From the IMG/VR virus record IMGVR_UViG_3300025895_000123: a stretch of 64,000 nt of DNA; one strand, 5' to 3'. The notes below the pieces were generated by a model, which saw only the letters and a program-made list of their open reading frames with translations, had not been told where the DNA came from and ran no database searches. Source of the stretch: a virus. The first letter of the stretch is position 1, and each line of letters begins with the position of its first letter. Positions 15,230-49,319 of the stretch are shown piece after piece. The position numbers and the translations under genes were made by a program.

Positions 15230-15406
15230 CACTAATTTTTTTTGGTAAAATATTGTGCGGGTTCATCAGATGGGAGTAAACGAAGATCACGTTTCCGGGG
15301 AAACATATGGATCTATCTAAATCACCCGCACTATCAGTCATACAAGGGCTGGGTTCATAGCTATAGCATGTCACCTCAGAATTTTATCCCTCAATATAAC
15401 CAACAA

Positions 15407-15895: not shown

Positions 15896-15926
15896 TTTTT
15901 CGCCTCCTAAATAAAAAGTAACATGT

Positions 15927-21343: not shown

Positions 21344-21373
21344 TTTGAAATCCTCCTAAAATAAATATTAATA

Positions 21374-25770: not shown

Positions 25771-25997
25771 TTTAGACTATCCATTATTTCAAGAAATTTA
25801 AAATGGTTTAAAAACATTTCATCTATATTAACAACTTCTGTTACTTCTCCTTCTAATTCACGAATTCTTATCATCATTGACTGAAAAATTTCATCTCTAT
25901 CATAAAAAAGCGATCTCGATTCATTATCAAGCTTTAATTTGATATATCTTTCAGCTGCACAACGAATGGTTAAAATTAATTCACACATTGTATCCAT
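25758..25997 (-). CDS. Hypothetical protein
   Basis: 79 aa, coupled in operon. Confidence 0.5.
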   Translation of the reverse strand: MDTMCELILTIRCAAERYIKLKLDNESRSLFYDRDEIFQSMMIRIRELEGEVTEVVNIDEMFLNHFKFLEIMDSLNWNP

Positions 25998-25998
25998 T

Positions 25999-31791: not shown

Positions 31792-31793
31792 AC

Positions 31794-32612
31794 CTATCCT
31801 TTATCAGGTGTCCAACCAATACTCTGAACATAGTTTTCAATGTCTTGATATATATTTGGTGTAACCATATCACTCAAATGCAAATATTCAGGGTTATTAA
31901 AGAAAGAATTAAATGCCTTACCTGCTTCTGACAAATAATCTAATTCAGAATCCCTAACAATCCTGGTATTATCAGAATACTTACGCATATTTAAAAGATC
32001 TCTAACTGTGAAATAATCATTATATTGTTCTGTTGAATGTCGAAAATCTTTATCCATTGATAACCCAGTTAACTCCATTACATCTCTAAGTGTCTTCTCT
32101 TGATTCGCAATTAAAGTTTCAAATTTTATAACAAGAATATTTTCTCTTTCACTATAAGGTAAAAATTTATTAAAATGAGGAAAATAAGCAGATGCATAAC
32201 TCTTAACTCCTTCCTTATCTCCTCTATGTTGTGTAACTACCCAACATGCTCTAGGATCTCTACCAATAAAAATTCCATAATCACAATATCTTAAAAAATC
32301 TTCTGCTCTAATATACACAAATATATAAGGTTTATCTGTCATTATATTGTAGATCTTAATTAAATTTTCTTTAGTAAGATTTTTTTGAATCTGAGGAAGG
32401 GCAAATGCATCACATCCATAAGTCTCTAGTATATGATACAATCCATTAAAAGAAAAATCAGTTAATTTACCATCTCTCAAATCATCCCCAATATTTATAA
32501 CACTTCTATTAGAATTCATAAAAAATTGATTCTTAAAATTATTATCAAACATATCTAAAAGGAGACTCTTTCCTCCATCAGTCATCATCATTAATCCGAT
32601 TATTTTCTTCAT
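31794..32612 (-). CDS. Sulfotransferase-like protein
   Basis: RDPR and IKFETLIANQEKTLRDVMELTGL pattern; N-terminal P-loop degenerate. Confidence 0.55.
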   Translation of the reverse strand: MKKIIGLMMMTDGGKSLLLDMFDNNFKNQFFMNSNRSVINIGDDLRDGKLTDFSFNGLYHILETYGCDAFALPQIQKNLTKENLIKIYNIMTDKPYIFVYIRAEDFLRYCDYGIFIGRDPRACWVVTQHRGDKEGVKSYASAYFPHFNKFLPYSERENILVIKFETLIANQEKTLRDVMELTGLSMDKDFRHSTEQYNDYFTVRDLLNMRKYSDNTRIVRDSELDYLSEAGKAFNSFFNNPEYLHLSDMVTPNIYQDIENYVQSIGWTPDKG

Positions 32613-33357
32613 TTAACTTCCTTACTCTATCTTCTAAAATTTTAATTTGTTCTGGTGAATCTATCCCAAATCCAATATGCTTTATCTTATACATTAGAAC
32701 TGGAATATTAACATCAATAAACCTGTTTTGTTCTAGACTTTCGACATCTGAATTTCTACTCCACATTGACATTCCTTTTCTCATAAAAAGTTCTTTAGGA
32801 AATATAAAAATGCCTACATGTTTATTATATTGATTCAATTCGAGTCTCTCTCCACTCTTTTGAATTGGTATAACAGCTCTAGAATTGTATATCATTCTAT
32901 TGTTATATATTACTATTTTACAAGAGAGTGGATTACATAAATCATCACTATTATAAAAATTTGAATAAAATGAGGATACTGATTGACTTCTAAAAACTTC
33001 ATTAAATACAACTTTATTAATCTCATCAGGAAAAATGTGTGGTTCATCACTAGGAATAGATAAATAATAATCAAATTTTTGATTTACAAGATAATATTTG
33101 AATGCTCTTTCTGTACCACAAGAGGCTTTACCAGAATCAATAACATCAATATTCACAAAATTTTTAATAACATAATCATGTATTTCACTACTATCTGTTG
33201 ATACAACAATCTTATCTAAAAAGTTAAATTTTAAAGCATTATTAATAACATGATAAATTATTGGTTTACCTAGAAAATCATGCATCAATTTTCGAGGGAA
33301 CCTCTTTGACTCCAGTCTCGCTGGAATTATTCCTACTGCCCGCTTCGGTGATATCAT
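32578..33357 (-). CDS. kdsB: CMP-Kdo synthetase-like cytidylyltransferase
   Basis: IIPARLESKRFPRKL, KHVGIF, LEQNRF, GIDSPE. Confidence 0.85.
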   Translation of the reverse strand: MISPKRAVGIIPARLESKRFPRKLMHDFLGKPIIYHVINNALKFNFLDKIVVSTDSSEIHDYVIKNFVNIDVIDSGKASCGTERAFKYYLVNQKFDYYLSIPSDEPHIFPDEINKVVFNEVFRSQSVSSFYSNFYNSDDLCNPLSCKIVIYNNRMIYNSRAVIPIQKSGERLELNQYNKHVGIFIFPKELFMRKGMSMWSRNSDVESLEQNRFIDVNIPVLMYKIKHIGFGIDSPEQIKILEDRVRKLNEENNRINDDD

Positions 33358-34183
33358 ATTTTTTTCTAACCTCTCCTAATACTGCGGAAAAAATTTTACT
33401 ATGATGACGACTAAACATATGGTTAGAACGATCTTCTAATTTATATTTAAAACAATGTATCCCACACAATTTTATTGATATTTCATGATCAACATAATAA
33501 TAATAATTATCTTTCAATTCACAATCTCTAATAAGACAATTCCATTGAACTCCATCACCTCGATCTTTTTTGAAATCAAATGAATAATTAAGATAAAATT
33601 GTTCCGCTCCCCAATCACCTACAATTACCATATTAGCTAAAGCTTTTCTAAATCCTATTAATTTAGTGATTAAAGGCTTTGTCTTACCTGCTAATAATCC
33701 AGCATTAATAGTTCCACCAAATTTATCAATAAGTCTAATATATTTATCTAATACTTCATCTCGAAAAGTTCCACCTTCAGGTCCTCTATATGTTCTCTCA
33801 TGTAAACTACTAAGTGGAATTTTTTCACAAGACAAAAAACAACCTTCTGTTGATTTTATTATTTCCCAAATTCCTCTAATATCTGACTGAAACCAAATAT
33901 CAACATCAAAAATTGCAATATAGTGATCTGGATAACTAGTTAGAATTGATATTAAATCTATATATCGACTATTCCCTATTATGTTCTCTTTTCTTAATAT
34001 GCATGGTATAAATTTGACTCCTAAAGCCTCACAATACCGTTTTATTACATCTGTGACTCCATAATCTAGAACCATAATAGAGTCCTGATATTTCCCTAAA
34101 CTTCTTAAACTAACTACCCATTCAATTAATTGTCTGCCAACACTTTTGCTTGCGGCTCCAAAAATTATTGTTTTATTTTCCAT
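33278..34183 (-). CDS. GT-A fold glycosyltransferase
   Basis: AIFDVDIWF DxD motif; INAGLLAG; WGAEQFYLN. Confidence 0.65.
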   Translation of the reverse strand: MENKTIIFGAASKSVGRQLIEWVVSLRSLGKYQDSIMVLDYGVTDVIKRYCEALGVKFIPCILRKENIIGNSRYIDLISILTSYPDHYIAIFDVDIWFQSDIRGIWEIIKSTEGCFLSCEKIPLSSLHERTYRGPEGGTFRDEVLDKYIRLIDKFGGTINAGLLAGKTKPLITKLIGFRKALANMVIVGDWGAEQFYLNYSFDFKKDRGDGVQWNCLIRDCELKDNYYYYVDHEISIKLCGIHCFKYKLEDRSNHMFSRHHSKIFSAVLGEVRKKYDITEAGSRNNSSETGVKEVPSKIDA

Positions 34184-34763
34184 TGATATATTCTTTATAA
34201 TCTTTTAATGCATGATCATTAGTAAAACATTTTTCTAAAACAGCAGGAGGCACAGTTGCGTAGCTTACTCCTTCTAACATAGCCCACATAACATCCCCCT
34301 TCTCTCGAAAACTTGCGGCAATAATTTCCGTTTTATAATTATATATGTTTTTAATTCTAATGCAATCATTAAGAAAACTACGATTTTCATTTTTACAAAG
34401 AAGAACAATACAAAAATTACAACCAAGATCACAAGCTTTATGAAATTGTATTAAATCGTAGGTTGTTGTTCCACATACTCTTATACCAGAAGTATCAATC
34501 AATTTACGAATTAACCCAAATTTCTCTTTAATTAAAGGGACTTTATAAATCATTCTACCTTTAACTGAATTCGAATCAATTAAATCTTCTTCTTTGTCAA
34601 TTTGAAGAAATATATTATCGAACATCTCCGACATTCTTACAGCAAAACTTGTGGCATTAGTATTCTCTTTTCTAAGAAGTATTGGATTTGTCGTTACTCC
34701 TTCAACATAATCTTTCCATTCAACAATTTTTGTTATATCAGCAGTATCAATAAAATACTTCAT
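34173..34763 (-). CDS. Transaldolase/fructose-6-phosphate aldolase family protein
   Basis: YFIDTAD, GVTTNP, KVP, IIAASFR. Confidence 0.85.
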   Translation of the reverse strand: MKYFIDTADITKIVEWKDYVEGVTTNPILLRKENTNATSFAVRMSEMFDNIFLQIDKEEDLIDSNSVKGRMIYKVPLIKEKFGLIRKLIDTSGIRVCGTTTYDLIQFHKACDLGCNFCIVLLCKNENRSFLNDCIRIKNIYNYKTEIIAASFREKGDVMWAMLEGVSYATVPPAVLEKCFTNDHALKDYKEYINGK

Positions 34764-34764
34764 C

Positions 34765-35697
34765 TTATACTTTCCTATAGTTCGTTGAAGTTCTATTTAA
34801 TCTATCATCACCAGAGAATTTACTATTATAAATCACAGCATTACGCTGACACTTTCTTTGATCACAATTTTTACATATATATTCTGATTCTGCTAAAGTT
34901 CCGAATAAATGATGTTTTCTTAAATCAATGAAACTTTCAGAACTAAATATTTCCTCTAGAGTTTGAGTTATAAAATCCCCCAATAGTAACACTCCATTAT
35001 AATCAAAACAACACATATTAATTGTTCCATCTACTTGAATTTGTAATGGACTATTTATTGGACGGCCACATGAATCCTTAATAATAGGACCTTCTCTATA
35101 ATTCAACGTATCAACCCAATTATGAGGACGCCAAATTTCAAGAAGATCCACTCTATCAGAATATCTATCTATAATCTCATCCACTTCATATTCGTTAATA
35201 TCAATAACATCTATTGTTATTACTAAACGAGTGTACTCTTTATTTTCGATAATATATTCAATATTATTTAATACTCTTTTATGTTGAGCAGGAGAAGCAC
35301 CAGTTATCCTGCAATAATTTTCTGTGTTGATTGAATGTAAACTAATTCTAATATCTTCAACTTTATGGTGAAATAATATATCAATTTGATCTTTATTCAA
35401 TGTGCTACCATTAGTTAATGTGTGGACACGAAGCCCTCTATCTTTTGAATATTTAATTTTTTCAAAAATAGTGGGGTCTAAAAATGCCTCACCAAAACCA
35501 GAAATAGTAGATTCCGTTATATAAGGAGCTTCTTTTCTTAACTTATCAATAATAAATTGATAAGTCTTTAAAGACATAATCTCTTTTTTCCTATTAAAGT
35601 AAGGTGTGGGATGAGTACAAAACTTGCATTTGTAATTACATTTTGTACAAGTTTCAATTCTCGCTTCATTTGTCTTAAGCATTATTTGCGACTCCAC
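34765..35697 (-). CDS. Radical SAM enzyme with SPASM/twitch domain
   Basis: CNYKCKFC; C..DGTINMCCFD..CKNC. Confidence 0.88.
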   Translation of the reverse strand: MESQIMLKTNEARIETCTKCNYKCKFCTHPTPYFNRKKEIMSLKTYQFIIDKLRKEAPYITESTISGFGEAFLDPTIFEKIKYSKDRGLRVHTLTNGSTLNKDQIDILFHHKVEDIRISLHSINTENYCRITGASPAQHKRVLNNIEYIIENKEYTRLVITIDVIDINEYEVDEIIDRYSDRVDLLEIWRPHNWVDTLNYREGPIIKDSCGRPINSPLQIQVDGTINMCCFDYNGVLLLGDFITQTLEEIFSSESFIDLRKHHLFGTLAESEYICKNCDQRKCQRNAVIYNSKFSGDDRLNRTSTNYRKV

Positions 35698-36448
35698 AAC
35701 TTTTTAATAAACTTTTTAATTCTTTTGCAGGTATTTGACTATCTGCATCACATAATGCGTTCTCAGGATCTATATGACACTCTATAAATAATCCATCCGT
35801 ACCACAAACAACAGAAGACTTCGCTAAATCATATGCATATGTGTAATTCCTCCAATATTTGTTAGGATGAGTTACATCAGTTAAAACTTTAAATTTATAA
35901 ACTGTTGCATTCTGCATTACCCTAATAAATCGAGGATCCATAATTAAATAATCAAATCCAAAACTAGTTCCACGATCAGTTATCATTAATTCGGCATTCT
36001 CATTTAATTCAAAAACTTTATTAACTATATTCCCTATATTAAAAGGACTAAGAGATTGAGGTTTTTTAATATGAAGAGGTACATTTCTTTTAACTGCAGC
36101 ATTAATTATAGAAGTTTGCATTGCTAAAAACGCAGGAATTTGAATTAAATCTACTCTATATCCATAATGATTAATTTGATCTACATCATGAAAATCTGTT
36201 GTGATCTTAACATTAAATGTAGTACTTACTTTCTCTAATAATCTTAATCCTTCCTCAAAACCTGGTCCATAATAATTATCTAATTTTGTTCTATTATCCT
36301 TAATGCACGACGCCTTAAAATAAAAATCTACATTTTTAATTTTTTTAATAACACTATTAATACTTCTAGCTGTATTCATTAATGTTTTTTCATTCTCTAT
36401 TACGCATGGACCACAAATTAAGAGCATAGTACTTCTCCAACAATCCAA
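35675..36448 (-). CDS. kdsA: KDO8P synthase-like protein
   Basis: GPCVIE, KAS..K.NRT, QIPAFL, KKPQ, RGTSFG, DVTH, GLFIECH.DPENALCD. Confidence 0.85.
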   Translation of the reverse strand: MDCWRSTMLLICGPCVIENEKTLMNTARSINSVIKKIKNVDFYFKASCIKDNRTKLDNYYGPGFEEGLRLLEKVSTTFNVKITTDFHDVDQINHYGYRVDLIQIPAFLAMQTSIINAAVKRNVPLHIKKPQSLSPFNIGNIVNKVFELNENAELMITDRGTSFGFDYLIMDPRFIRVMQNATVYKFKVLTDVTHPNKYWRNYTYAYDLAKSSVVCGTDGLFIECHIDPENALCDADSQIPAKELKSLLKSCGVANNA

Positions 36449-37335
36449 TCAATAAATGTATTATATTTATTTCGATCTAATACATGTTCAAAATTATTGT
36501 CGAATACATCTTTATAAAAATTTTTGAAGTTTGACGCCATAAAAGGGTATCGAATATTATAAAAATGAACCCCTGGTATAAATCTATCATGATATCCTAT
36601 AAAATCTTTAATATCATCAATTCCATCACGATGAGATCTACCTTTTAACTTAGGTAATATTAATTCCTTGTTATTTTGTATTGCTTCTATTAAAGAATAC
36701 GGTAAAGGATCAATATAATTTCTAGATTGTGGGTAAACATAATGAGTTATATTTGAGAAAAATATTTGTTGATCAAAAGTATGACGATGATTCAAAACAT
36801 ATTTAAATCTTTTACTAAAATCATATCTAATGTTTTGTCCCATTGTATACACATCAACATAAGAATATAAATTATTTAACATTCCTAAAAAATGATCGAA
36901 TGAATCCATTGTTATATAGTTTCTTACATAAAATCCTAAACAAGGTCTAGTGATTTCTATTTGTTCTACTATAAAGTCTGTAATCATAGGAATGAAATTC
37001 TTAATATCTTTATGATCATAAGTATAATAAAAACCATTATTACAAGAGTTATGTCCAAAAAAATTGTGTTCATTTCGAACATATATTAAATAATTAATGT
37101 CTTTTAAAGATATGATATTGACTGGAGATGAATAGTTACTCGGAACTTGTGTCACAAAAATAATTCTTTTGTATTTTTCATTTAACTCTTTTAAATCAAC
37201 TACATTTTTTGATTCTATGTGGTCTAGATATTCCGAGTGTTCACTAACCATTCTTTCAGAAATTGTGAATGCTCCACGTTTAAGTTTTCCGTAAGAAACA
37301 GATATTAACAAGTATTTTTTCATAGCTATTAACAA
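36418..37335 (-). CDS. Putative divergent GT-B glycosyltransferase
   Basis: YIDPLPYSLIEAIQNNK motif shared with 30961-31791. Confidence 0.45.
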   Translation of the reverse strand: MLIAMKKYLLISVSYGKLKRGAFTISERMVSEHSEYLDHIESKNVVDLKELNEKYKRIIFVTQVPSNYSSPVNIISLKDINYLIYVRNEHNFFGHNSCNNGFYYTYDHKDIKNFIPMITDFIVEQIEITRPCLGFYVRNYITMDSFDHFLGMLNNLYSYVDVYTMGQNIRYDFSKRFKYVLNHRHTFDQQIFFSNITHYVYPQSRNYIDPLPYSLIEAIQNNKELILPKLKGRSHRDGIDDIKDFIGYHDRFIPGVHFYNIRYPFMASNFKNFYKDVFDNNFEHVLDRNKYNTFIDWIVGEVLCS

Positions 37336-37340: not shown

Positions 37341-37369
37341 GGAGGTAAATATATAGAATATTTACCTCC
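37341..37369. terminator. 12-bp hairpin between the Cys/rSAM module and the sugar module
   Basis: GGAGGTAAATAT/ATATTTACCTCC inverted repeat. Confidence 0.5.
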
Positions 37370-37384: not shown

Positions 37385-37978
37385 TTAACTAAATTGGGAA
37401 TAAAAATTATCACACATAGATTGAATTTGTTCAACAGAGGTTGCTGTCTCCAAATCTTTACTAAACTGCATCCATTGCTTATAAAGAAAATTACGTTCAG
37501 AAAGTTTGTCTAATAACGATAAATATTCTTCTAAATCAGCAATAAGATCTTGATTATCACTGTTAACTATTTCAAGATATTTCTCTTCTCGATTCGAATC
37601 AGAAATGATATATCCTGCAGCAGCAAGTTTATTATTCAAGATTTGATAACTAAAGAAATCAAACATACTTAAATATCCAATTCTAAAAGCTACAAAGTGT
37701 TTAGATCGAATTTTAGCTCCTTGTCTTTCGGCAGAAATTGGATCTGGAATATCTTGAATAATCACGTCTGCTTGTGTAATTTGGTAATCAATATTTTTAG
37801 GAAGATAAACGTCTTTTCCATTTCGTAAGGCATCTTCAATGTATGATCTTAATTCAGGTGTTGGTATTTCGTAATATCTGACTCCGCTATGATCAAAGAT
37901 TGATGCTTCATCCCCACCCAAAACGGAAACAACTTTATAGTTAACACCAACATCAACAACACTTGCTAGAATTCTCAT
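37385..37978 (-). CDS. Hypothetical protein of the rSAM/Cys-repeat operon
   Basis: GGAGG RBS; 197 aa helical. Confidence 0.65.
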   Translation of the reverse strand: MRILASVVDVGVNYKVVSVLGGDEASIFDHSGVRYYEIPTPELRSYIEDALRNGKDVYLPKNIDYQITQADVIIQDIPDPISAERQGAKIRSKHFVAFRIGYLSMFDFFSYQILNNKLAAAGYIISDSNREEKYLEIVNSDNQDLIADLEEYLSLLDKLSERNFLYKQWMQFSKDLETATSVEQIQSMCDNFYSQFS

Positions 37979-37998
37979 ATATTTTCCTCCAAAATAAA

Positions 37999-38508
37999 TT
38001 ATTCCTTAACATTTTGATCGTTATTACATTGACAGGTGCACGAATAATTACATTGACAGGTGCACGAATAATAACAATTACACGTACACGAATAATTACA
38101 TTGACACGTACATGAATAATCACAATTACACGTACATGAATAATTACACTGGCAAGTGCATGCTTCAATTTTCTCTTCTTTGATAGTTTCTCCAGAGTCA
38201 ATCTCATATTTATTTAATAATAATTCTATTTTCTCCAATAAATCAGGAAGTAATTCAACAACTTCAAGAATTTCCTGCACTGCCTTTATAAGTAATGGAG
38301 AGAATTGACTATAATCAACTTTAAGATGCCCTGTTTCTGAATCTCGAGTAACTATCGAATATTCTTCTGACCTGAATACTTTCATTAAATCTTGTGCTAT
38401 TACGCCAAAGAAAAATCTTTTATCAGAAATATTCTCAGAATGTTTATCCAAATCATATTTAAATTTAACTACTTTAAAACGTTTAACTAACTCTGAATAT
38501 TGCCCCAT
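37999..38508 (-). CDS. S74-like chaperone domain fused to CxCxC(N/D/Y)Y repeats
   Basis: FGVIAQDL..VDYSQFSPLLIKAVQE then 5 full and 1 partial xCTCxCxY repeats; lacks the N-terminal SDxRLK. Confidence 0.75.
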   Translation of the reverse strand: MGQYSELVKRFKVVKFKYDLDKHSENISDKRFFFGVIAQDLMKVFRSEEYSIVTRDSETGHLKVDYSQFSPLLIKAVQEILEVVELLPDLLEKIELLLNKYEIDSGETIKEEKIEACTCQCNYSCTCNCDYSCTCQCNYSCTCNCYYSCTCQCNYSCTCQCNNDQNVKE

Positions 38509-38553
38509 AATTTACCTATTTAAAGATATTCAACCTCCATTTTAAGTAATTCA

Positions 38554-39279
38554 TCAGTAGTTACAATTGCAAGTACATGCGTAATTACATTGACAAGTAC
38601 ATGCGTAATTACATTGACAAGTACAACCATAGTTACATTGACAAGTACAACCATAATTACATTGACAAGTACATGCGTAATTACAATTACAAGTGCACAC
38701 ATAATCACATTGACAAGTACATGCGTAATTACAATTACAAGCACATTGGGATTCAAAAGTATTAACTCCCGATCGTAGGCTTTCTATTTGTTCGTTCTGT
38801 ACTAAATCCCCTTCCTCTAAATTTGTAAGATTTAATGATGCATGTGCAGACCAAGGACCGAACAAATTTAACGCTGTTCTCATTGCTATAATTGTGGCAT
38901 TATCTACAGTTCCTCCAACGGAAACTGCTGCAGGAATGCTAGCACCTGCAGATCGTCTAACATTTTCATTAGCAATTGCCGTTCTTAACTCATTAATGTG
39001 TTGACTTTTAATAGGAACACCTGTAAGAGAAGGATCAGTCCAAGAAGTTGGAGTCACTGGAGCAATTTTTCCAGCATGGGATGGACAACCTAATGTTGAA
39101 TGAACAGGACAACTACTTGTCGCTGTATGTGCTGCACAAATTGTCGTTGCTGAATGAGATGTACAAGGTGTAGTATTACTGTGTGCTGTACAAGTTGTCG
39201 TTGCTAAATGAGATGTACAAGTTGTCGTTGCTAAATGAGATGTACATTGTGAGGTACTCGAATGATCTGTACAAGCCAT
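38554..39279 (-). CDS. Cys-repeat protein A (8 CxxH + central domain + 8 CxCxC(N/D)Y)
   Basis: GGAGG RBS; central PIKSQHINELRTAI domain; tandem repeats at both ends. Confidence 0.85.
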   Translation of the reverse strand: MACTDHSSTSQCTSHLATTTCTSHLATTTCTAHSNTTPCTSHSATTICAAHTATSSCPVHSTLGCPSHAGKIAPVTPTSWTDPSLTGVPIKSQHINELRTAIANENVRRSAGASIPAAVSVGGTVDNATIIAMRTALNLFGPWSAHASLNLTNLEEGDLVQNEQIESLRSGVNTFESQCACNCNYACTCQCDYVCTCNCNYACTCQCNYGCTCQCNYGCTCQCNYACTCQCNYACTCNCNY

Positions 39280-39324
39280 AATCTTCCTCCAAAATTTTTA
39301 TTATGAACACTCAATATTCTTTTA

Positions 39325-39612
39325 TCAATAGTTACAATTGCAAGTACAAGAATAGTTACATTTACAGGTACATGCATAGTTACATTGACAAGTACATGCA
39401 TAGTTACATTGACAAGTACAACCATAGTTACATTGACAAGTGCACGAATAGTTACATTGACAAGTGCACGCATAGTTACAATTACAGGTACATGCATAGT
39501 TACATTGACAAGTACAACCATAGTTACATTGACAAGTGCACGCATAGTTACATTGACAAGTACATGCGTAGTTACATTGACAAGTGCACGCATAGTTACA
39601 ATTACAAACGCA
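39325..39612 (-). repeat. 24-nt coding tandem repeat (12 units)
   Basis: ACATTGACAAGTACATGCATAGTT-type units encoding xCTCQCNY; related runs at ~38020-38160 and ~38555-38745. Confidence 0.9.
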
Positions 39613-40248
39613 TTCTGATTCAAAAGTATTAAGTCCTGATCTTAAACTCTCTATTTGTTCATTCTGTATTACATCCCCTTCTTCTAAATTTGCAGGGTCT
39701 AATGATGAATGTGCAGACCAAGGACCAAACAAATTCAAGGCGGTTCTCATTGCTATAACTGTAGCGTTATCTACAGATCCTCCAACGGAAACTGTACCAG
39801 GAATAGTAGCTCCTGCACTTCTTCTAATATTTTCGTTATTAATCGCTGTTCTTAATTCATTTAGATGTTGAGCTTTAATTGCAACACCTGTAAGAGAAGT
39901 ATCAGTCCACGAAGTTGGGACTATAGCAGGAATATGTCCTGTACAACCAGATACTGGTCCTGCTGTGTGTGCTGTACAAGCTGTCGTTGCTAAGTGTGAT
40001 ATACAAGCTGATGTCGCTGCGTGTGCTGAACAAGGAGTAGTATTACTATGTGCCGAACAAGTTGTCGTTACTGAGTGTGATGTACATCCTGAATTAACAT
40101 GGCCACCACAAGTTGTTGTAAGTGAATGTGATACACAAGCTATAGTATTACTGTGTGCTGCACAAGTTATCGTCGCTGAATGAATACCACATGCACCAGC
40201 GCTATGAGTACCACAAGATGTCGTACTTGTGTGATTATTACAAGCCAT
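39325..40248 (-). CDS. Cys-repeat protein B (12 CxxH + central domain + 12 CxCxCNY)
   Basis: Paralog of 38554-39279; AIKAQHLNELRTAIN domain. Confidence 0.85.
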   Translation of the reverse strand: MACNNHTSTTSCGTHSAGACGIHSATITCAAHSNTIACVSHSLTTTCGGHVNSGCTSHSVTTTCSAHSNTTPCSAHAATSACISHLATTACTAHTAGPVSGCTGHIPAIVPTSWTDTSLTGVAIKAQHLNELRTAINNENIRRSAGATIPGTVSVGGSVDNATVIAMRTALNLFGPWSAHSSLDPANLEEGDVIQNEQIESLRSGLNTFESECVCNCNYACTCQCNYACTCQCNYACTCQCNYGCTCQCNYACTCNCNYACTCQCNYSCTCQCNYGCTCQCNYACTCQCNYACTCKCNYSCTCNCNY

Positions 40249-40265
40249 AATCTTCCTCCAAAGAT

Positions 40266-41423
40266 TTAATTCTTTACAATATGATTTAAAGCTTTCATAA
40301 TTCTACCGTTAATTTTATAAAATCTACAAAGTATTGGTTGGTTTGCATAATCTCTCCACTTCTCAATATAAGTATCTTTATCACTTTTTTCATACTTAAC
40401 TGGATTACACCGCAAACAATACCCAGCTTCACAATCAAGGCATTCTAAAGGCTGATAGCCAAAATTTGTATCGTGCAAAATATGAGAATCAACTAATTTT
40501 TTTATAAAATCTGAATCTTTTAAATTAGAAACAATATGATCATCAACTTTATCGTCATAAACACTTCCATGACATTTATAAATTTTTCCACCTACTCCAA
40601 TACAAACCATATCTCTTCCAGCAGAACAGAGAGCTTTATTTGGAGTAAACCAAGCAAAAAAGAATTGATTATTGTTCTTTTTATAAAATTCTATATCTTT
40701 CGTTGCTATCTCTGTAAGTGCATTTTCTAAATCTACACAATATTCATCAATTTCATTTTCATTATACTTACCCAAATGATAATAATCAATAGTTGGAAAA
40801 TAATTATTAGCATGAAAAAATTGTTGTCCTGAATGTCTCTCATAAATATCTCTTATATCATCATAAGCAGCAGGTAAATATTTAAAAGCATCAAGAGTAA
40901 CAGTAGATTTTATTGTACTTGGAATTCTATGTTTGTAAACACGAAAAATATTATCTCTAACTCGAGTCGAAGTTAAAACTCCATCTTTTCTAACTCGATA
41001 AATATCATGTATTGGCATTCCATCATACGACATTTGAATGCAAAATTTAGGATGTCCACCTTCAATAAAAGTGTCTTTGAATTTAATCAAAGAATCCCAT
41101 ACACCATCTAAATTATAACCATTACTAAAAATAAAATATTTAACTCTAGAGTTATTTGCATAATAATTCACAATATAATTTACAGTTTTATGAGCTAGTG
41201 TAGGCTCACCACCCCATAAACCAATATTTAATGCATCATAATGTTGTTTGAAAAAATCTGAGTCTAATAATTGATTTATTTTATTAATAAATAGATCAAC
41301 ATCTTTAAAGAATGTATTTCTAAAATGTCCATCTTCAAAACAATACTTACATCCAAAATTGCAAGAATCTGTTAGTGTTAAATCTATATTATATATACGA
41401 ACTTGACTAAAATTTTTACCCAT
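40266..41423 (-). CDS. Radical SAM/SPASM peptide maturase-like enzyme
   Basis: CNFGCKYC, WGGEP, CSAG..YKCHG..CLDC..CLRC. Confidence 0.88.
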   Translation of the reverse strand: MGKNFSQVRIYNIDLTLTDSCNFGCKYCFEDGHFRNTFFKDVDLFINKINQLLDSDFFKQHYDALNIGLWGGEPTLAHKTVNYIVNYYANNSRVKYFIFSNGYNLDGVWDSLIKFKDTFIEGGHPKFCIQMSYDGMPIHDIYRVRKDGVLTSTRVRDNIFRVYKHRIPSTIKSTVTLDAFKYLPAAYDDIRDIYERHSGQQFFHANNYFPTIDYYHLGKYNENEIDEYCVDLENALTEIATKDIEFYKKNNNQFFFAWFTPNKALCSAGRDMVCIGVGGKIYKCHGSVYDDKVDDHIVSNLKDSDFIKKLVDSHILHDTNFGYQPLECLDCEAGYCLRCNPVKYEKSDKDTYIEKWRDYANQPILCRFYKINGRIMKALNHIVKN

Positions 41424-41438
41424 TTTATCTCCACAAAC

Positions 41439-42443
41439 CTAAAATTGACTGAATTTCTTATTTGTTGCTTTATCTGCGTAAGATATACCAGTTGTTGGAG
41501 ATAAATAAGCATTACCAACACCCATACTCTTATCACAACGACCACAAGGTTCACATGTTACCCCACAAAAGGGAATACCATATAATGAATATACATAATT
41601 CAAATAAGGTCGTAATTGCGATCTCAAGATCTCCGTGTAACCTACAGGTCCAACAGAATCTAGATCTTGATGTGCAAAACTAAGAGCCACTTTATCACAC
41701 ATAGGCCATCTTTCACAAATTTTAATCATATCTTCAACAACATTATTATAATTTCCAGATTGAACTGTGTAACTCATACTAAAAAACACATTATGCTTAA
41801 CAAGATTATCAACTGCTCGTTCAACATGTTCTTTAGAGCTAGTTCCATTAGGAAATTTTCTACGAAAGTGACCTGACCCATCATAACTTACTTCAATACT
41901 AATATTTACATTGTTACTTTCGGCAAACATCTTTAATTCTTTATATTGTAGAATTAATCTTTCATCTAGGAATAAAAGAGCATTAGTTGTTATTGGAATA
42001 GCCCAACCTCCAGCCTTAGATAAAGATGAAACTTTTCGAACTAAATACTCATAAAGATCAAATCTTAATAAAGGTTCACCACCCATCACAACAATACAGG
42101 AGTTTAAATCCCCTTCTCTTTCATATATTTCATTTACAAAAGTATCTAACATTAATTCAGAACAATTAGCTTGATCGGAAAGACCTTGACGACTATCTCC
42201 TTCATAACAATATTCACAACGAAGATTGCAATTAGTGTTCAAATAAACAACATTAGTTCTTGTTGTTCCTTTTCTATCATTAACACTTTTCGATAATTTT
42301 TTTTGTTTATGTGTTATATTATCTTGATTGCATCCTTGTCCATCGCTACATGATTGACAGACTTCGCATGATAAATTTTTATCACTTAATATATCTTTAA
42401 TATCAATCATAAAAGTTTTTACATCTCGATTAGTAACATTCAT
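41439..42443 (-). CDS. Radical SAM enzyme with Cys-rich N-terminal extension
   Basis: CNLRCEYC, MGGEP; N-terminal CEVCQSC..C; C-terminal CGVTCEPCGRC. Confidence 0.85.
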   Translation of the reverse strand: MNVTNRDVKTFMIDIKDILSDKNLSCEVCQSCSDGQGCNQDNITHKQKKLSKSVNDRKGTTRTNVVYLNTNCNLRCEYCYEGDSRQGLSDQANCSELMLDTFVNEIYEREGDLNSCIVVMGGEPLLRFDLYEYLVRKVSSLSKAGGWAIPITTNALLFLDERLILQYKELKMFAESNNVNISIEVSYDGSGHFRRKFPNGTSSKEHVERAVDNLVKHNVFFSMSYTVQSGNYNNVVEDMIKICERWPMCDKVALSFAHQDLDSVGPVGYTEILRSQLRPYLNYVYSLYGIPFCGVTCEPCGRCDKSMGVGNAYLSPTTGISYADKATNKKFSQF

Positions 42444-42977
42444 TTATTGCTTTCCCATTTTAGAACGAATTTTTGAAACAAGATCCTGAACATCTTTTTC
42501 TATTTCATCAGATGCTTTACCAATAGCTTGTCCTGTTGCATCCTTGCCATGAATAGGGCAATCACAATCTACAGATTGTCCTGTTGCATCCTTACCATGA
42601 ATAGGACAATTCTCATCAACTCCAGCATGATCAATACACATTGTTGGTGGAGCATCTTGATGTCCACCACATGAACTATCAGCAAAAGTTCCATGCCCAA
42701 CACAAACTTGATCCTTTCCTAATCCTGATTGAGATGCTTCATTTGTGTCTGTAAAAGCTACAACATTTACACTATCAACAACCTTTTCTTTTGCAAGACT
42801 TGAGGGTTTTTGTTGCTGACAACATTCAACAATTCTAAGAAGTTTGTCTGCAACAAATAAACATATGTCACTAAGACTCTTATCGAATTTTTCTAAATCT
42901 TTTGCCACATTAAACATCATTTGTGATGAATTAAGAATTTTATTTTGGTCCACTATTTCGCCTCCATTATCCAACAT
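42444..42977 (-). CDS. Protein with five CxxH motifs (possible substrate or accessory protein)
   Basis: CVGH, CGGH, CIDH, CPIH x2; duplicated CPIHGKDATGQ. Confidence 0.7.
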   Translation of the reverse strand: MLDNGGEIVDQNKILNSSQMMFNVAKDLEKFDKSLSDICLFVADKLLRIVECCQQQKPSSLAKEKVVDSVNVVAFTDTNEASQSGLGKDQVCVGHGTFADSSCGGHQDAPPTMCIDHAGVDENCPIHGKDATGQSVDCDCPIHGKDATGQAIGKASDEIEKDVQDLVSKIRSKMGKQ

Positions 42978-44085
42978 TTTGAATAGATCCTTTTACCATT
43001 TCTCTGAATAACTCATTATCCTTCAACTCATGAACAATTCTTATAGACTGTTTATATAATATACCTAATAATTCGCAAATACTTTCTACTGGTTCACAAT
43101 AGTTAGCATTTGGTTCGTCGGTTTTCAATTGCTGGTAAGTACACCCAGCATTACAATACTGATATAATTCGCAATTTTTACACTTTTCATAGGTTCGAGG
43201 ATTAGATACTTGTGGAGATCTCATAATTTCAATAGTGTCCCCATATTCAATGTCTTTTACTGAATCATATAATGCATGAACATCATTCGATCCAAATCTT
43301 GCACATGGGTAAACCATACCATCAGGCATAAAGCCGGCACCAGTACATCCAGCAAAACATCCAAAAGGTCTTTTACCGTAAGTAGCACCAAAAAGTAGAT
43401 CTAAAATATATAATTGAAAAAACCCAACAGTGGTTCTTATACCACTTCTAATATATTTTATCATTTGGTCTGCAAGCTTTTCTGCCTGAATTTCAAAATT
43501 TTTGATATCATATTCTGACCAGATATTATCTCTAACCAGAGAATAATCTGGACTCAATATATTAAACTCTTCAACAAACCATTTATAATTATCAACCAAA
43601 GTGTCTACACTCTCAGGTGATACCATTACTTTACAACCACCTGTCCCTTGAAATCGAGATTTAAGAGGCTCTTTCATATAAAGATCTAAGCTAGAACTTC
43701 CATCTTTAAGGGGTCGATTATTTTTATTCCATAATCCGTCGAAAGATAGCGAAATCGCTAAATTGTTTCTTTTAAAGTATTCCCACTTTTCATCATCCAC
43801 AAAAGCTAATCCATTTGTCATCGCTATAATAAGAGTACATCTAGAATCTTTTTTTAAGATAGGAGTAATATATTCAATTAGTTCCCAATTTAATAATGGT
43901 TCTCCACCAAATAAAGCAGCATGAAATTTATTTTGACCATACCTCTTCATCATTTTTGGTAAAGTGTTATAATAATGTGAATCAAAAACAGCTGGAGTCA
44001 TATCTCTTGGCTTTTGATTAATATAACAATACGTGCACGCCATATTGCATCTTTCTGTAAGTACTAATTGAAGTTCAAATGACAT
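42967..44085 (-). CDS. Radical SAM/SPASM peptide maturase-like enzyme
   Basis: CNMACTYC, FGGEP, CFAG..YPCARF..CKNC..YCNAGC. Confidence 0.9.
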   Translation of the reverse strand: MSFELQLVLTERCNMACTYCYINQKPRDMTPAVFDSHYYNTLPKMMKRYGQNKFHAALFGGEPLLNWELIEYITPILKKDSRCTLIIAMTNGLAFVDDEKWEYFKRNNLAISLSFDGLWNKNNRPLKDGSSSLDLYMKEPLKSRFQGTGGCKVMVSPESVDTLVDNYKWFVEEFNILSPDYSLVRDNIWSEYDIKNFEIQAEKLADQMIKYIRSGIRTTVGFFQLYILDLLFGATYGKRPFGCFAGCTGAGFMPDGMVYPCARFGSNDVHALYDSVKDIEYGDTIEIMRSPQVSNPRTYEKCKNCELYQYCNAGCTYQQLKTDEPNANYCEPVESICELLGILYKQSIRIVHELKDNELFREMVKGSIQNVG

Positions 44086-44096: not shown

Positions 44097-44714
44097 TTAT
44101 TTAATTACACAGTCTACAAGTTTTTCAGAAGGGTTACTATCTGATTCGAGAGCTAAACCAAATTTATCAATCTTTTCATTCATGTTTTCTACAGCTCTTG
44201 CACAACCCTCACCAGCAGAGACAATAACTTGCCCCTTCTCAATTGGTCCAATGATTCTTACAGGAACCTTACCAACAAGACCAACAGGTAATCCATTTAG
44301 TTCAGAATTCATAAGATATGCAGGTCTTGGAGAAAGTACACCAACAACACTTTCACAACAACTCTCATTACATATCTGTAAATCTGCACTTTCATCTTTA
44401 CAAATACTTAAGACAGTTCCTACCGGGCAATCACCTTCTTTTACAGTAAACCTTTCCGCTAAATCTGCATATTTTGCACTAACTGCTGTTCCTGAAAGAG
44501 TAATTCCATAAACAGCTTTATATCGTTGTCCGCTTCTTCCAAGATCAACAGTGTTATCTACGTTTGGAGTTATTTCGATACCATCTGCAAAAACTCCACC
44601 ATAATTAATACTGTCAAAATGACCAGAATTCCATCTTTTAGCAGAAGTACCAATGCTACCTTCATTAGTAGCACGAGGAACTATATTTCTCGTAGCCATT
44701 CGATTAACCTCCAA
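44097..44714 (-). CDS. Short fibre protein with G2-type autoproteolytic chaperone domain
   Basis: AKYADLAERF..GVLS..PAYLMN..VGLVGKVPVRIIGPIEKGQ. Confidence 0.7.
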   Translation of the reverse strand: MEVNRMATRNIVPRATNEGSIGTSAKRWNSGHFDSINYGGVFADGIEITPNVDNTVDLGRSGQRYKAVYGITLSGTAVSAKYADLAERFTVKEGDCPVGTVLSICKDESADLQICNESCCESVVGVLSPRPAYLMNSELNGLPVGLVGKVPVRIIGPIEKGQVIVSAGEGCARAVENMNEKIDKFGLALESDSNPSEKLVDCVIK

Positions 44715-44726
44715 AAAATTATAATT

Positions 44727-45719
44727 TTATGTTACAACCTGTAAAGTCAAATCATCATTACCATCAAGTTCAAAGAAAACATCAGGATCTGATGATGGGG
44801 AAACAAGAGGCATTAAATCATTATTACCATCAGATTCAAACAAACCATTTTGAATTGGATCTTCGTTACTAGGAGAGATATCATCGCTAGCATCAGATAC
44901 CCAACCATAACCAATAGTTGAGGGACCAACACCACCAACAGCAGCAATAATAAACTGAATAAAATCATTCCAACCTATTTCACTATATGCTCTAGTAGTA
45001 GAATTATAAACAATAAAAGAATCACTTGTCTGTACCTGGTTCGTCGTTGGAGCAGCATCTGTTAAAACCTCGCGCCAAACAGCAGGTACTCCAGGAGGGC
45101 ATTCAGTACAGACAAAAGTTTTACCAGTTGCCATATTAATCCATTGTTCTCCTACAAAAAATCCTTCATCCCAATTATCAGATGGTAAAGGGTCTCTAGA
45201 AAATGTAACCGTGTTAACGATAGGTAACAATCTATTTAAAGAAGGATTAGGATTAGGAACACCTGATAACCAAGTATTAAGATCTTCATCCCATTTAAGA
45301 AGACTATCATCAAAATCTCCTCGAATGATTCTTAATTCGGCAGAAGGTGGATTTGTCCCACTGGTATAATTTTTATTAAGAGTAATTACATTACCAGAAA
45401 ACTCGGGAGTACCATTTTCGTCTAATACAAAATTATTAGCATCTACAGTGAAATTTCCATTACCCAAATCAAAATGGCCATCTTGATCAGACCCATCGCC
45501 GAAGGTTATACCTCCGGCGAGTGCATCTGAAGATAACATAATGACCCATTTGCCAATATCCCTGTCTACTAAAGTAAATATTCTACCAGTTGTTTTGTTT
45601 ACCCATATTGTACCCTCAACATAACCTTCATTCTTGTTTTGGGCTGGAGTTGGATTAGATAGTTCAGCAACAACTCTTGGGAAACTGATGACAGAAAGGT
45701 CAGACATACTTTCCTCCAA
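44727..45719 (-). CDS. Virion structural/fibre-associated protein
   Basis: Two EG/FVG..W.N..TG..F repeats; LKWDEDLNTW module shared with neighbouring fibres. Confidence 0.6.
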   Translation of the reverse strand: MEESMSDLSVISFPRVVAELSNPTPAQNKNEGYVEGTIWVNKTTGRIFTLVDRDIGKWVIMLSSDALAGGITFGDGSDQDGHFDLGNGNFTVDANNFVLDENGTPEFSGNVITLNKNYTSGTNPPSAELRIIRGDFDDSLLKWDEDLNTWLSGVPNPNPSLNRLLPIVNTVTFSRDPLPSDNWDEGFFVGEQWINMATGKTFVCTECPPGVPAVWREVLTDAAPTTNQVQTSDSFIVYNSTTRAYSEIGWNDFIQFIIAAVGGVGPSTIGYGWVSDASDDISPSNEDPIQNGLFESDGNNDLMPLVSPSSDPDVFFELDGNDDLTLQVVT

Positions 45720-45725: not shown

Positions 45726-48700
45726 TTAAATTATACACATTACAAGCTTTTCTTCTACTTCAAGATTTTCCTCAATAGATTGTCCAATCTTATACAGAAG
45801 TTCGCTCTCTTTTCTAATTCCACGTGCAGCACCTTTACCAGCAGAAACAATTACCTGTCCTTTACCAATTGGTCCTATAACCCTAACAGGAACCTTACCA
45901 GCAAGACCAACTACTGTACCTTCTGATTCAGAATTCATCAGATAACCTGGGTCTTTAGAACATACACCAATAACGTTTTTACAGAGTTCAGTACCGCATT
46001 CCTCAATTTCGTATTCACCAGAATCACAAGCTTTCATAATTGTTCCTGGATATACATCGTCTTCGGCACAAGTATACTTTTCGGCAAGGTCAGCATATTG
46101 AGCAGATGTAGCTTGACCTAATACCGTACCACTGGTCCACAAATTAGTTCCCATAGATACTACAGGTACACCATTATGGCACATTGCTACCTGATGTCCA
46201 GTAGCATAATTACCAGCACCATTATTCGGATTATAATATGCTAATCCATAGAGATTTCCAAAATCAGCACCGGTAGAACTATTTCTATAACCACTACCCA
46301 TAGACCAAATATGTTGAGTCTTAGTATCGTCATAGGTTCCAAAAATACCTTCATCTCTATTAGCATCTGGAACTATAATTGCAGATACTAAATTATCATC
46401 TGCATCAGATCTCAACAATGAAGCACCTTCAACACCATCAACAGTATCTGCATCGAGACCAGATCCAGTACCATCATTACCAGTATGCCAAACGGCGTTA
46501 CCTTCAATTTCTAATCCACCACCGCCACCATTACCAGTAATATTTAGAATCTTACTTGTTCCATCTTGCTCGAGTCTTACATCGTAATCGTTGACAGCGT
46601 TATCCTTAAAATCAATATACCCGCCACCAGTTGCTCGAGCTATTTCAACACTACCAGATGATTTTACTTCAATTCTATTTCCACCACCATTATCAACTGA
46701 TAAAGTACCTCCTGAAAAATTAGCATCGACATCGCTTCTCAAGTAGCTAGCACCTTCGACACCATCAAGAGTATCTGCATCAAGACCAGATCCAGTACCA
46801 TCATTACCTGCATGCCAAACCTCACTACCTTCAACAGTGATACCACCGCCACCACCATTGCCACTAAAATCAAGAATCTTACTTGTGTCAACTTGTTTGA
46901 TTCTTACATCATAATCTTCAGCACTTTGATCCTTAAAATCAATATACCCGTTACCAGTTTCACGAGCTATTTCAATAGCCCCATCAGAAGGATTAAGAAT
47001 AATCCTATTATTAGAATACGACAGAGTAAGCATTAAAGCATTAAAAGTATCATTGATATCACTTCTCAAGTAACTGGCACCTTCAACACCATCAAGCAAT
47101 TCAGAATCTGCAGCTTTCGCAGTGAGTCCTAATTTACCTGCAAGACCATTATCAATGTAGGTTTTAGCAGCAAGTTGACTTGCAAAATCATCATCAGATG
47201 GTGCTCCTCCACCAAGACCTGTATCTGTATTTAAATTAGCAAGATTGACATAGTTATTGACAATTTCTGTTTCAGTGTAATAACGATTATCATGATCATG
47301 ACTGTCATTTACAACAGTCGCTACTATATCAACATTCGCAGAACCATCAAAGGATACAGAACCTGTAACATCACCTGACAAACTAATGTCTCTAGCATTG
47401 TTAAGTTTTGAAGCATTCTCAGCATTACCCTTAAACGTTTGTGCATAAATTTCAGCGAAACGATGTGTAGCATCACCAATATCATATGTAATATCTACGC
47501 TCGGTGTAGAATTACCATCTCTTCTCAAAAATCTTGCATCTTGTTCTATTTCTGTATAATATTGGGTATCATGACTATGACTATCATTTACAACAGTTGT
47601 ACTTATACCAGCGTCACCGGTACCATCAAAAGAAACAGTGCCTGTAACATCCCCAGACAATGTAATATTACGAGCGGTCTCTAGCGCTGTAGCCGTAGCT
47701 GCATTACCATCTAATTCACCATGAATATTTGTTCCATATACATCAGAAAATTTAGCACCTGCTGAACCAAGACTATGCACATTATCTGCATCTGGTAAAG
47801 CATCAGCATCACGGTTCAAATATGAGGAATCATGATTATGAGTACCTAACTCAATATCAGTCATTGATCCTGTAATACCTGCTTGCCATTTATCTGTTAC
47901 TTCATCATATACAAGTCTAGCATTCGGCAAATTACCGCGCTCAATTTCAATACCACCAGTTCCTGCAGTTATACCATCTCCAGTTTGATTGCGATTAAGA
48001 ACAATTTCATTGTCATCTACCTGAAGAACCGCAGTATCTACAGTTGTTTGTGTACCATTAACATAAAGGTCTCCTTGAATGGTTAAATCTCCAGAACTTT
48101 CAATTTCCCCTGCTGTGAGTTTACCAGCAGAATCTAAAGTAACATTATTTGCAGTTATTGTGAAATTATTTGCTCCACCACAATTAACAGTAATTGCATC
48201 ATTACCATCACCTAAAGTAGCTTGTTCTCCAAAAGTAACTGGTGTCTGTACATCAAGAATACCTTTAATACTAACAGTATTATTATCATCGTAACCAAGA
48301 TCTACATCTCCATCTACTCTAAGACCTTGATCAAATCTAACTACAGCGGTACCCGTTGTTCGAATAGAATCTACAGTTGCCATACCACTTGCTTCGAGAT
48401 CTTTACAAGTGATAACACCTTGTCCGACATTTCCTTGTGCATCAAAGGAAAATTTATTGTTAACCGTATCAAAAGATATCGGATAGTTTTGTCCTCCAAC
48501 TTGAAACTGGAATACAGGTCTTACATCAATATCTCCACCACCTGGATTATATGTAAACGGTTTTAGAGTAATGTTCGACGCTTGAATGGTAGGTACTTCA
48601 GCAGCAGATGTCGGAGAAACCCCAGCATCAATTGATAAAGATGTACCTTCAAAAGTTGCATTATCACCTATATGAACCGTAGTGGCTGAAACATAAAGAT

Positions 48701-49319
48701 CCTTAATCTTTTTAGTAGCTGAACCAATATTAAGAGAAGAATCATTTTCAGGAATTAAATCTCCTTTAAATGTAATCTCTTCAGTGGTTCCATTCCAGGA
48801 AAACATAGCATTTAAATCAGTTTGAGTCTGGTCTAGAAGTGCTACAATATCTACACCACTCACTGTAATGCTTGTTCCTTCTAATGTAATATTATCACCA
48901 ACATTAAGAACGCCTGCGCTTACAGCAGGAGCATAGTACTCCGATGCTCCAAATAAAACGCATTTGCCTTTTTCCCCACTCAAGAAAGTTAATGTAATCT
49001 GATTTTCATTATCAACTGTTACACTACTCGGAATCATTTGCACATTATTTTCATCATATACAATAAAGATAACATCTTCAGTTTGCAAATTATGAGTAAT
49101 AACCCAAGATGTTGATGATATTCCTTGAGTAAATACATAATGTTGAGTTTTATTTGTAAGAGGATACCAAGTTTCCTGTGTATCAATAATGGCGTAAAGA
49201 TATAACACACCACCTTTAAAACAAAATTGACCAATACTAGGGCTTACTGGAAAATCAGTTTCTCCATCGAGAACAATGGTTGAACTGTTCATCAATAAAT
49301 TAGTTAATACTTTTGCCAT
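45726..49319 (-). CDS. Long tail fibre with C-terminal G2-type chaperone domain
   Basis: ARNITLSGDVTG.VSFDG and VWH.GNDGTGSGLDAD repeats; YADLAEKY..GKVPVRVIGPIGKG; N-terminal WVITHNL module. Confidence 0.85.
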   Translation of the reverse strand: MAKVLTNLLMNSSTIVLDGETDFPVSPSIGQFCFKGGVLYLYAIIDTQETWYPLTNKTQHYVFTQGISSTSWVITHNLQTEDVIFIVYDENNVQMIPSSVTVDNENQITLTFLSGEKGKCVLFGASEYYAPAVSAGVLNVGDNITLEGTSITVSGVDIVALLDQTQTDLNAMFSWNGTTEEITFKGDLIPENDSSLNIGSATKKIKDLYVSATTVHIGDNATFEGTSLSIDAGVSPTSAAEVPTIQASNITLKPFTYNPGGGDIDVRPVFQFQVGGQNYPISFDTVNNKFSFDAQGNVGQGVITCKDLEASGMATVDSIRTTGTAVVRFDQGLRVDGDVDLGYDDNNTVSIKGILDVQTPVTFGEQATLGDGNDAITVNCGGANNFTITANNVTLDSAGKLTAGEIESSGDLTIQGDLYVNGTQTTVDTAVLQVDDNEIVLNRNQTGDGITAGTGGIEIERGNLPNARLVYDEVTDKWQAGITGSMTDIELGTHNHDSSYLNRDADALPDADNVHSLGSAGAKFSDVYGTNIHGELDGNAATATALETARNITLSGDVTGTVSFDGTGDAGISTTVVNDSHSHDTQYYTEIEQDARFLRRDGNSTPSVDITYDIGDATHRFAEIYAQTFKGNAENASKLNNARDISLSGDVTGSVSFDGSANVDIVATVVNDSHDHDNRYYTETEIVNNYVNLANLNTDTGLGGGAPSDDDFASQLAAKTYIDNGLAGKLGLTAKAADSELLDGVEGASYLRSDINDTFNALMLTLSYSNNRIILNPSDGAIEIARETGNGYIDFKDQSAEDYDVRIKQVDTSKILDFSGNGGGGGITVEGSEVWHAGNDGTGSGLDADTLDGVEGASYLRSDVDANFSGGTLSVDNGGGNRIEVKSSGSVEIARATGGGYIDFKDNAVNDYDVRLEQDGTSKILNITGNGGGGGLEIEGNAVWHTGNDGTGSGLDADTVDGVEGASLLRSDADDNLVSAIIVPDANRDEGIFGTYDDTKTQHIWSMGSGYRNSSTGADFGNLYGLAYYNPNNGAGNYATGHQVAMCHNGVPVVSMGTNLWTSGTVLGQATSAQYADLAEKYTCAEDDVYPGTIMKACDSGEYEIEECGTELCKNVIGVCSKDPGYLMNSESEGTVVGLAGKVPVRVIGPIGKGQVIVSAGKGAARGIRKESELLYKIGQSIEENLEVEEKLVMCII

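Follow-up and report, generated by a model that had tools for sequence, protein, structure and literature searches.

What role might three radical S-adenosylmethionine (rSAM) enzymes play when a phage encodes them immediately ahead of three cysteine-repeat proteins and beside its tail fibres? This question is raised by the virus record IMGVR_UViG_3300025895_000123 of IMG/VR, low-GC DNA of an uncultured marine phage that we analysed as a single stretch of 64,000 nucleotides (hereafter the window, whose numbering is used throughout). On balance we favour the answer that the module serves the enzymatic thioether stapling of trimeric, fibre-type virion proteins, a proposal built up from sequence comparison. 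The original prediction made for this DNA had described a cluster at 37385-44085 resembling those for peptides made on the ribosome and modified after translation (RiPPs), and its coordinates, strand and gene description are all correct: the three rSAM genes (42967, 41439 and 40266) are directly followed by three co-oriented Cys-repeat genes. The core of the module reads as follows.

42967 to 44085, minus strand: rSAM3, a radical SAM enzyme in which the 7-Cys SPASM pattern is complete and a RiPP recognition element (RRE) is missing; best matches PapB and CteB
42444 to 42977, minus strand: D, a 177-residue acidic helical helper, always between rSAM3 and rSAM2, with five C-x-x-H motifs in its variable middle
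41439 to 42443, minus strand: rSAM2, a radical SAM enzyme whose C-terminus bears a single auxiliary motif, CX3CX2CX2C (twitch-like), and whose N-terminus is extended and rich in Cys
40266 to 41423, minus strand: rSAM1, a radical SAM enzyme with a 7-Cys SPASM pattern; a Cys-repeat gene is directly next at most loci
39325 to 40248, minus strand: A, 307 residues: 12 nonads of C-x-x-H at the N-terminus, then a three-helix domain, then 12 octads of CTCxCNYx at the C-terminus
38554 to 39279, minus strand: B, 241 residues, a paralogue of A with 8 + 8 repeats
37999 to 38508, minus strand: C, an S74 fibre-chaperone body without the SDxRLK cleavage motif, plus six CTCxCNYS units

Conservation and linkage of the enzymes with the repeat proteins

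Protein A founds a nameless family without a Pfam entry that comprises 250 clusters at 90% identity and 652 representatives at 50% identity (E<=0.001), nearly all of them metagenomic and many on contigs of 140-300 kb. We scanned the genomic contexts of six members and of 30 IMG/VR loci with the proteins of the window, which gave 24 distinct loci. At about 21 of these at least one of the three enzymes lies no more than 10 kb away. The complete trio is present at 15, where the typical order is rSAM3-D-rSAM2-rSAM1-repeat protein and the gene for a 197-residue protein usually comes next; the enzyme-free loci are on fragments estimated to be 13-33% complete. A second survey, based on rSAM1, found a Cys-rich CxC protein within 5 kb at 31 of 35 distinct loci and directly downstream at 22, and at divergent loci of this set SDERLK and an S74 domain come immediately after the units, which there read CxCNxx. 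Scanning IMG/VR with rSAM3 alone returned one distant locus only. Finally, the genome of the Campylobacter phage CP220 contains an orthologue of each enzyme (37, 27 and 34% identity), the three lying apart from one another, together with a 534-residue protein bearing CTCDCNY heptads, and this co-inheritance without adjacency lends independent support to a functional link. These three lines of genomic evidence, namely the A survey, the rSAM1 survey and CP220, argue that the link between enzymes and repeats is real. The original prediction had named the occurrence of the rSAM genes without the repeats as a finding that would speak against it; in our survey the enzymes are almost never seen without an adjoining CxC protein.

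Outside phages, scans of 185,579 prokaryote genomes returned no octad pairs, and heptad pairs only on three short contigs of metagenome-assembled genomes (MAGs) that resemble phage DNA. Two short MAG contigs, L100 and L101 (binned as Alphaproteobacteria and Anaeromicropila), encode 521- and 832-residue homologues of the Campylobacter-phage heptad protein, L100 with an rSAM gene as well, and in both cases phage DNA has probably been assigned to a bacterial bin. Two further observations concern individual phages. One phage contig holds two complete tandem cassettes of rSAM3-helper-rSAM2-rSAM1-repeat protein (L008:4125-8657 and 11829-16439; also L009). In phage CP21 the annotation divides the rSAM1 orthologue into two genes, with many stops in one frame (L002:3984-5154; CP21_110/CP21_111), the result of either a frameshift or a sequencing error; the gene is intact in CP220, CPt10 and IBB_35.

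The radical SAM enzymes

All three enzymes possess the CX3CX2C motif and match PF04055 (41.5, 50.0 and 27.4 bits). The third of these scores is just below the cut-off of 29.5, and in the family of that enzyme C21, C25, C28 and a GGEP motif are invariant. Orthologue alignments bear out the earlier claim that two of the enzymes have SPASM-type Cys patterns: rSAM1 and rSAM3 share seven further invariant Cys in this pattern (rSAM3 reaches 36.6 bits against TIGR04085, cut-off 27), and rSAM2, with its single four-Cys CX3CX2CX2C motif, lies outside the SPASM subfamily (TIGR04085/PF13186).

Among NCBIfam models, that of PapB was the top match of each enzyme, followed at lower scores by nif11, SCIFF, DynA, HxsB, QhpD, CXXX-repeat, TIGR04463 and anSME models, with the cyclophane-forming YhhB, AmcB and FxsB also among the sub-threshold matches. 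The SCIFF maturase model TIGR03974 gave 88.6 bits at best (cut-off 425), the CXXX-repeat maturase model TIGR04115 gave 67, 38 and 27 bits (cut-off 350), and the CrpC family TIGR04463 gave 32.5 bits for rSAM1 (cut-off 525), all falling short. Among solved structures rSAM3 is best matched by CteB, a thioether synthase, and because this alignment begins only at CteB residue 101, rSAM3 is without an RRE domain. Since PapB and CteB are the best matches and every score is far below its curated cut-off, the three enzymes are, judged by these comparisons, new families within the peptide- and protein-modifying SPASM group and not sugar or cofactor enzymes. A grouping with sugar- or cofactor-modifying families, which had been put forward as counting against the original prediction, was looked for, and peptide and protein maturases were found instead.

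The five C-x-x-H motifs of the helper D had previously been overlooked. D does not appear to be an RRE: it has no Pfam match and its orthologues have only the flanking helices in common.

The Cys-repeat proteins and their repeat unit

A and B are built alike: C-x-x-H repeats at the N-terminus are followed by a helical domain and, at the C-terminus, by CTC(N/D/Q)CNY repeats. The central domain of B (residues 70-178) was modelled by AlphaFold2 (AF2) as a three-helix unit with a predicted local distance difference test score (pLDDT) >93. Neither PDB nor BFVD gave this model a Foldseek match at E<=0.001, and the sequence of B found no match in PDB. A, B and C gave no Pfam match to the CXXX-repeat target family PF27846, clusters bearing which were a weak lead in the Atlas feature search.

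Over 756 units the consensus is C1 T2 C3 (N/D/Q)4 C5 N6 Y7, to which a small eighth residue may be added, Tyr7 being conserved in 95% and Asn6 in about 90%; by this consensus two of the three Cys per unit lie in C-x-x-(N/D/Q). Across the C-terminal regions 63% of Cys (n=2767) have N, D, Q or E at +3, and in the N-terminal regions the +3 residue is His in 74% and Asn in 12% (n=286).

The composition of the unit bears on what we regard as the strongest rival to thioether chemistry, namely that the enzymes modify the same proteins by other means: oxidation of Cys to formylglycine, epimerisation, C-C or aryl cross-links with the invariant Tyr, or a Cys-His link. Three distinct enzymes suggest more than one reaction, Tyr7 and Asn6 are highly conserved, the N-terminal motif is C-x-x-H, and anSME, YhhB, AmcB, FxsB, HxsB and DynA are among the sub-threshold matches. 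We nevertheless think such chemistry unlikely, given that PapB is the top match for all three enzymes and CteB the best solved relative, and that the C-x-x-(N/D/Q) register matches the motif whose cross-linking in CrpA was demonstrated by experiment (see below).

A six-frame scan of the whole window located 27 units, all of them in A, B, C and the tail of one further protein:

54155 to 55438, minus strand: 427-residue protein, the first gene of the fibre operon, ending in two CTCNCNY units (54167-54211)

Relatives of this protein at 74-79% identity keep the tag with 2-4 units, whereas homologues at <=53% identity have no units and end in FFGGTPG-type tails, which argues that the repeat is a portable module. 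The description of the 427-residue protein as a baseplate component was not confirmed, with no PHROG, Pfam or phage-database match. The equal numbers of N- and C-terminal repeats noted alongside the original prediction hold for both A (12:12) and B (8:8) but not for the family, where 4 of 121 are equal (r=0.16). Two open reading frames overlapping A, at 39231-39623 (minus strand) and 39303-39632 (plus strand), are artefacts of its 24-nt DNA repeats and not genes.

Fibre chaperone and detection of a homologue in virions

The repeat array leads directly into SDxxLK, where the S74 intramolecular chaperone known from tail fibres and spikes begins, in 82 of 121 family members, and in 78 of those 82 a stop follows exactly 12 residues past the Ser, the remainder of the chaperone being a separate gene of ~91 residues downstream. 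Examples of the split S74 are L007:8001-8976 and L071:11065-12047, where SDxxLKxxIxYx is followed by a stop and the ~91-residue gene lies ~20 nt downstream; this arrangement looks like a trans-acting form of an otherwise 'intramolecular' chaperone. A and B stop at the last Tyr, adjoining the point where the S74 cleavage motif starts in their relatives. C aligns with S74 bodies but without SDxRLK (Peptidase_S74 PF13884, 23 bits, cut-off 22), and we take it that C supplies the chaperone body. The putative targets are of fibre type; an S74 chaperone is either fused to these proteins or encoded as a separate piece next to them.

One of the 38 proteins that a published proteome assigns to the virion of Campylobacter phage IBB_35 is the product of gene 3-9, given there as 'hypothetical, no homologs' with a mass of 60,318 Da (PMC3322345). 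We computed a mass of 60,317 Da for the IBB_35 repeat protein, and the agreement in position, length and mass identifies gene 3-9 as that protein. The earlier suggestion that the targets are particle components finds support, then, both in the fused or adjacent S74 chaperone and in the detection of a homologue in virions.

These same observations leave little room for a reading in which the repeat proteins, instead of entering the virion, give rise to a small RiPP or cofactor that is released, the repeats being excised after modification. Such a fate would suit the RiPP-like layout of enzymes followed by tandem Cys-rich genes, the protease-type S74 domain, and the C-terminal Tyr of A and B, which recurs in some rSAM substrates. 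It is, however, very improbable: the proteins contain a well-folded helical domain, their S74 domain is a fibre-folding chaperone, a homologue reaches the virion, and the repeat also tags the 427-residue protein of the fibre operon. A leader, RRE, transporter and dedicated leader protease are lacking as well.

Module boundaries and neighbouring genes

The module consists of nine co-oriented minus-strand genes running from 44745 to 37341 with minimal gaps between them, in the order short fibre protein, rSAM3, D, rSAM2, rSAM1, A, B, C and 197-residue protein. The long tail-fibre genes are at 45726-49319 and 49858-52815. The outer features are the following.

44718 to 44745, minus strand: promoter-like site upstream of the module, TTTACA-16-TATAAT (11/12; a consensus match alone)
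44097 to 44714, minus strand: short fibre protein of 205 residues, whose C-terminal domain is like that of the 1197-residue fibre, of the Peptidase_G2 intramolecular-chaperone type
37385 to 37978, minus strand: conserved 197-residue protein (phrog_25260), the last gene of the module
37341 to 37369, minus strand: hairpin terminator-like end of 12 pairs and a T-rich tail, between the module and the sugar gene cluster

The 205-residue protein is kept directly upstream of the first rSAM gene at many loci. The AF2 model of the 197-residue protein has a pLDDT of 90; a structure search matched it to no solved fold, and against AlphaFold DB it gave weak DUF4376-type rows alone. The unit seems to span from the promoter-like site (44745-44718) to the strong hairpin (37369-37341), taking in 44097-44714 and 37385-37978, and with a promoter-like site and terminator of its own it appears to be grouped with the fibre genes and not with the sugar cluster.

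That cluster (19978-37335, minus strand) encodes a pathway of the 3-deoxy-D-manno-oct-2-ulosonic acid (Kdo) type, with KdsA-like DAHP_synth_1, CTP_transf_3, a transaldolase fragment and a DegT aminotransferase, along with sulfotransferase-like, Asn-synthase-like, ATP-grasp and methyltransferase genes and several unannotated paralogues of ~270-300 residues. It also contains three more rSAM genes, at 34765-35697 (SPASM), 28682-29584 and 26784-27578. Similar sugar genes flank the module in L005, L007, L008 and L066-L088, and the Ser/Thr-rich fibre proteins may be glycosylated.

This neighbourhood must be weighed when considering that the Cys repeats might be metal-binding layers (compare the HxH sites of T4 gp37) or disulfide ladders, with the rSAM enzymes serving the sugar pathway or some other fibre protein. 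We judge this improbable. The enzyme trio stands beside a Cys protein in two independent surveys and co-occurs with one in Campylobacter phages despite the scattering of the genes there; it resembles peptide maturases and not sugar-modifying rSAM enzymes, and a terminator separates it from the sugar genes. These points outweigh, in our opinion, the facts that CxC and C-x-x-H are classic metal ligands, that Cys at every other position would all point to one side of a beta-strand, and that sugar and further rSAM genes adjoin the module in the window, L005, L007 and L008. The metallocluster loading of particle components that the original prediction offered as an option is unsupported.

Proposed mechanism

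Metal-bearing triple beta-helices are familiar from phage T4, where they are formed by the octapeptide repeats of gp5C and around the HxH iron sites of gp37. With these precedents in mind, a repeat period of 8 residues, the alternation of Cys and the dependence on S74 suggest a trimeric beta-helix, so that the C-T-C-(N/D/Q)-C-N-Y arrays of A, B, C and the 427-residue protein most likely adopt trimeric beta-structure through S74-type chaperone-assisted folding. We infer this fold, as well as the action of the enzymes on the repeat proteins and its chemistry. In the proposed scheme the three enzymes (two SPASM and one with a single auxiliary cluster) would work iteratively along the repeats before or during assembly or trimerisation; iterative action on tandem Cys-acceptor motifs is known for PapB. 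They would take hydrogen from acceptor side chains and join these to Cys sulphur, and the outcome would be thioether (ranthionine-type) staples at the C-x-x-(N/D/Q) registers of the C-terminal units. The N-terminal C-x-x-H units are a possible substrate of one of the enzymes, although we know of no thioether precedent for C-x-x-H. The end product would be a covalently braced fibre that is independent of disulfides.

Several of our results weigh against thioether stapling of a fibre. The scores against the PapB family NF047865 (128.3, 56.8 and 73.9 bits) do not reach its cut-off of 340, nor does any of the three enzymes reach the cut-off of any thioether-maturase family, and neither an RRE nor a leader was identified in the module. 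On the substrate side, the repeat region of the AF2 model has a pLDDT of only 60-70, and for one Cys per unit, the third, the +3 position offers no acceptor. Four rSAM1 loci (L061, L064, L084 and L087) have no Cys-rich protein nearby, and some of the linkage between enzymes and repeats could reflect a larger module, since the sugar pathway and its three rSAM genes adjoin at several loci. Lastly, the virion detection of IBB_35 gene 3-9 has a coverage of 2.6% (PMC3322345).

More tentatively, and with less confidence than we place in the stapling itself, we suggest that many large phages (marine T4-like phages, jumbo phages and Firehammervirus) could build fibre parts from Cys-ladder beta-structure that is stapled with thioethers by rSAM enzymes, possibly including an undescribed Cys-His link; RiPP chemistry would then serve to harden a virus particle.

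Novelty and significance

Thioether cross-linking of proteins by SPASM enzymes is already known, as in the case of QhpC, and what would be new here is the biological setting. Our literature searches brought up no paper in which phage rSAM enzymes are connected with virion proteins of the Cys-repeat kind. The view of the original prediction that there is no characterised example of such modification does not extend to whole proteins, given the thioethers of CrpA/CrpC (PMC13692751), but it stands for virus particles, for which our searches yielded none. From the comparative evidence, phages probably do cross-link a virion fibre protein enzymatically. If true, this would to the best of our knowledge be the first case of a structural protein of the virion being cross-linked by enzymatic radical chemistry, and it would account for the surplus of rSAM genes that has long been noted for Campylobacter group II phages and for T4-like viral genomes of marine origin. 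For RiPP enzymology it would add three new leader-independent SPASM families acting on folded-protein substrates. As cultured Campylobacter phages carry the system, it is directly testable.

Comparison with known systems

The nearest parallel is CrpA/CrpC of Methanococcus voltae, described in 2026, in which an SPASM rSAM enzyme (TIGR04463) puts ranthionine links on a 29-kDa Cys-repeat protein whose C-X-X-Q/D repeats are the linked motif (PMC13692751). As in the phage module, an SPASM rSAM gene lies beside a gene for a large tandem Cys-repeat protein with C-X-X-(Q/D), the substrate is a protein and not a short peptide, and a beta-helix is predicted at low confidence. The two systems differ in the RRE of CrpC and the leader-like N-terminus of CrpA, both absent from the phage module, in the number of enzymes (one in Crp, three in the phage module), and in the length of the units (17 residues against 7-8). 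Moreover, only the phage module sits in a fibre operon with an S74 chaperone. Strictly speaking the phage module is not a RiPP system, having no RRE, no leader and products of 169-427 residues with folded domains. The term RiPP-like applied by the original prediction is a loose fit, apt for the layout of enzymes and repeat genes but not for the missing leader and RRE or for products of 170-530 residues.

PapB-PapA (freyrasin) and CteB-CteA (ranthipeptide/SCIFF) provide the best family and solved-structure matches of the phage enzymes. The latter score no higher than 57-128 bits (cut-off 340) and are without an RRE, and their substrates are fibre-type proteins of 170-530 residues in contrast to the secreted peptides of PapB and CteB. 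The CXXX-repeat system (TIGR04115/PF27846) likewise pairs an rSAM/SPASM enzyme with a Cys-repeat target, its repeat being CXXX as opposed to CxCxCNY here. On the structural side, endosialidase-type S74 fibres and T4 gp5C and gp37 are alike in having the chaperone directly after the repeats, an 8-residue period and alternating inward residues. They differ from the phage module in that its repeats are of cysteines, its chaperone is usually split between two genes, and its fold is a prediction.

An abundance of rSAM genes in phages has been remarked upon before. Nishimura et al. reported a marine T4-like genome with 12 rSAM genes (PMC5332604), and Timms et al. called the 11-12 rSAM genes of CP220 and CPt10 'highly unusual' and guessed at a role in host metabolism (PMC2853527). 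In the Firehammervirus papers the rSAM genes were taken as metabolic auxiliaries and gene 3-9 as having 'no homologs', with no link proposed between them (PMC2853527, PMC3322345). We find that Firehammervirus CP220, CPt10 and IBB_35 carry true orthologues of the three enzymes and the repeat module, dispersed in those genomes and contiguous in the marine phage described here.

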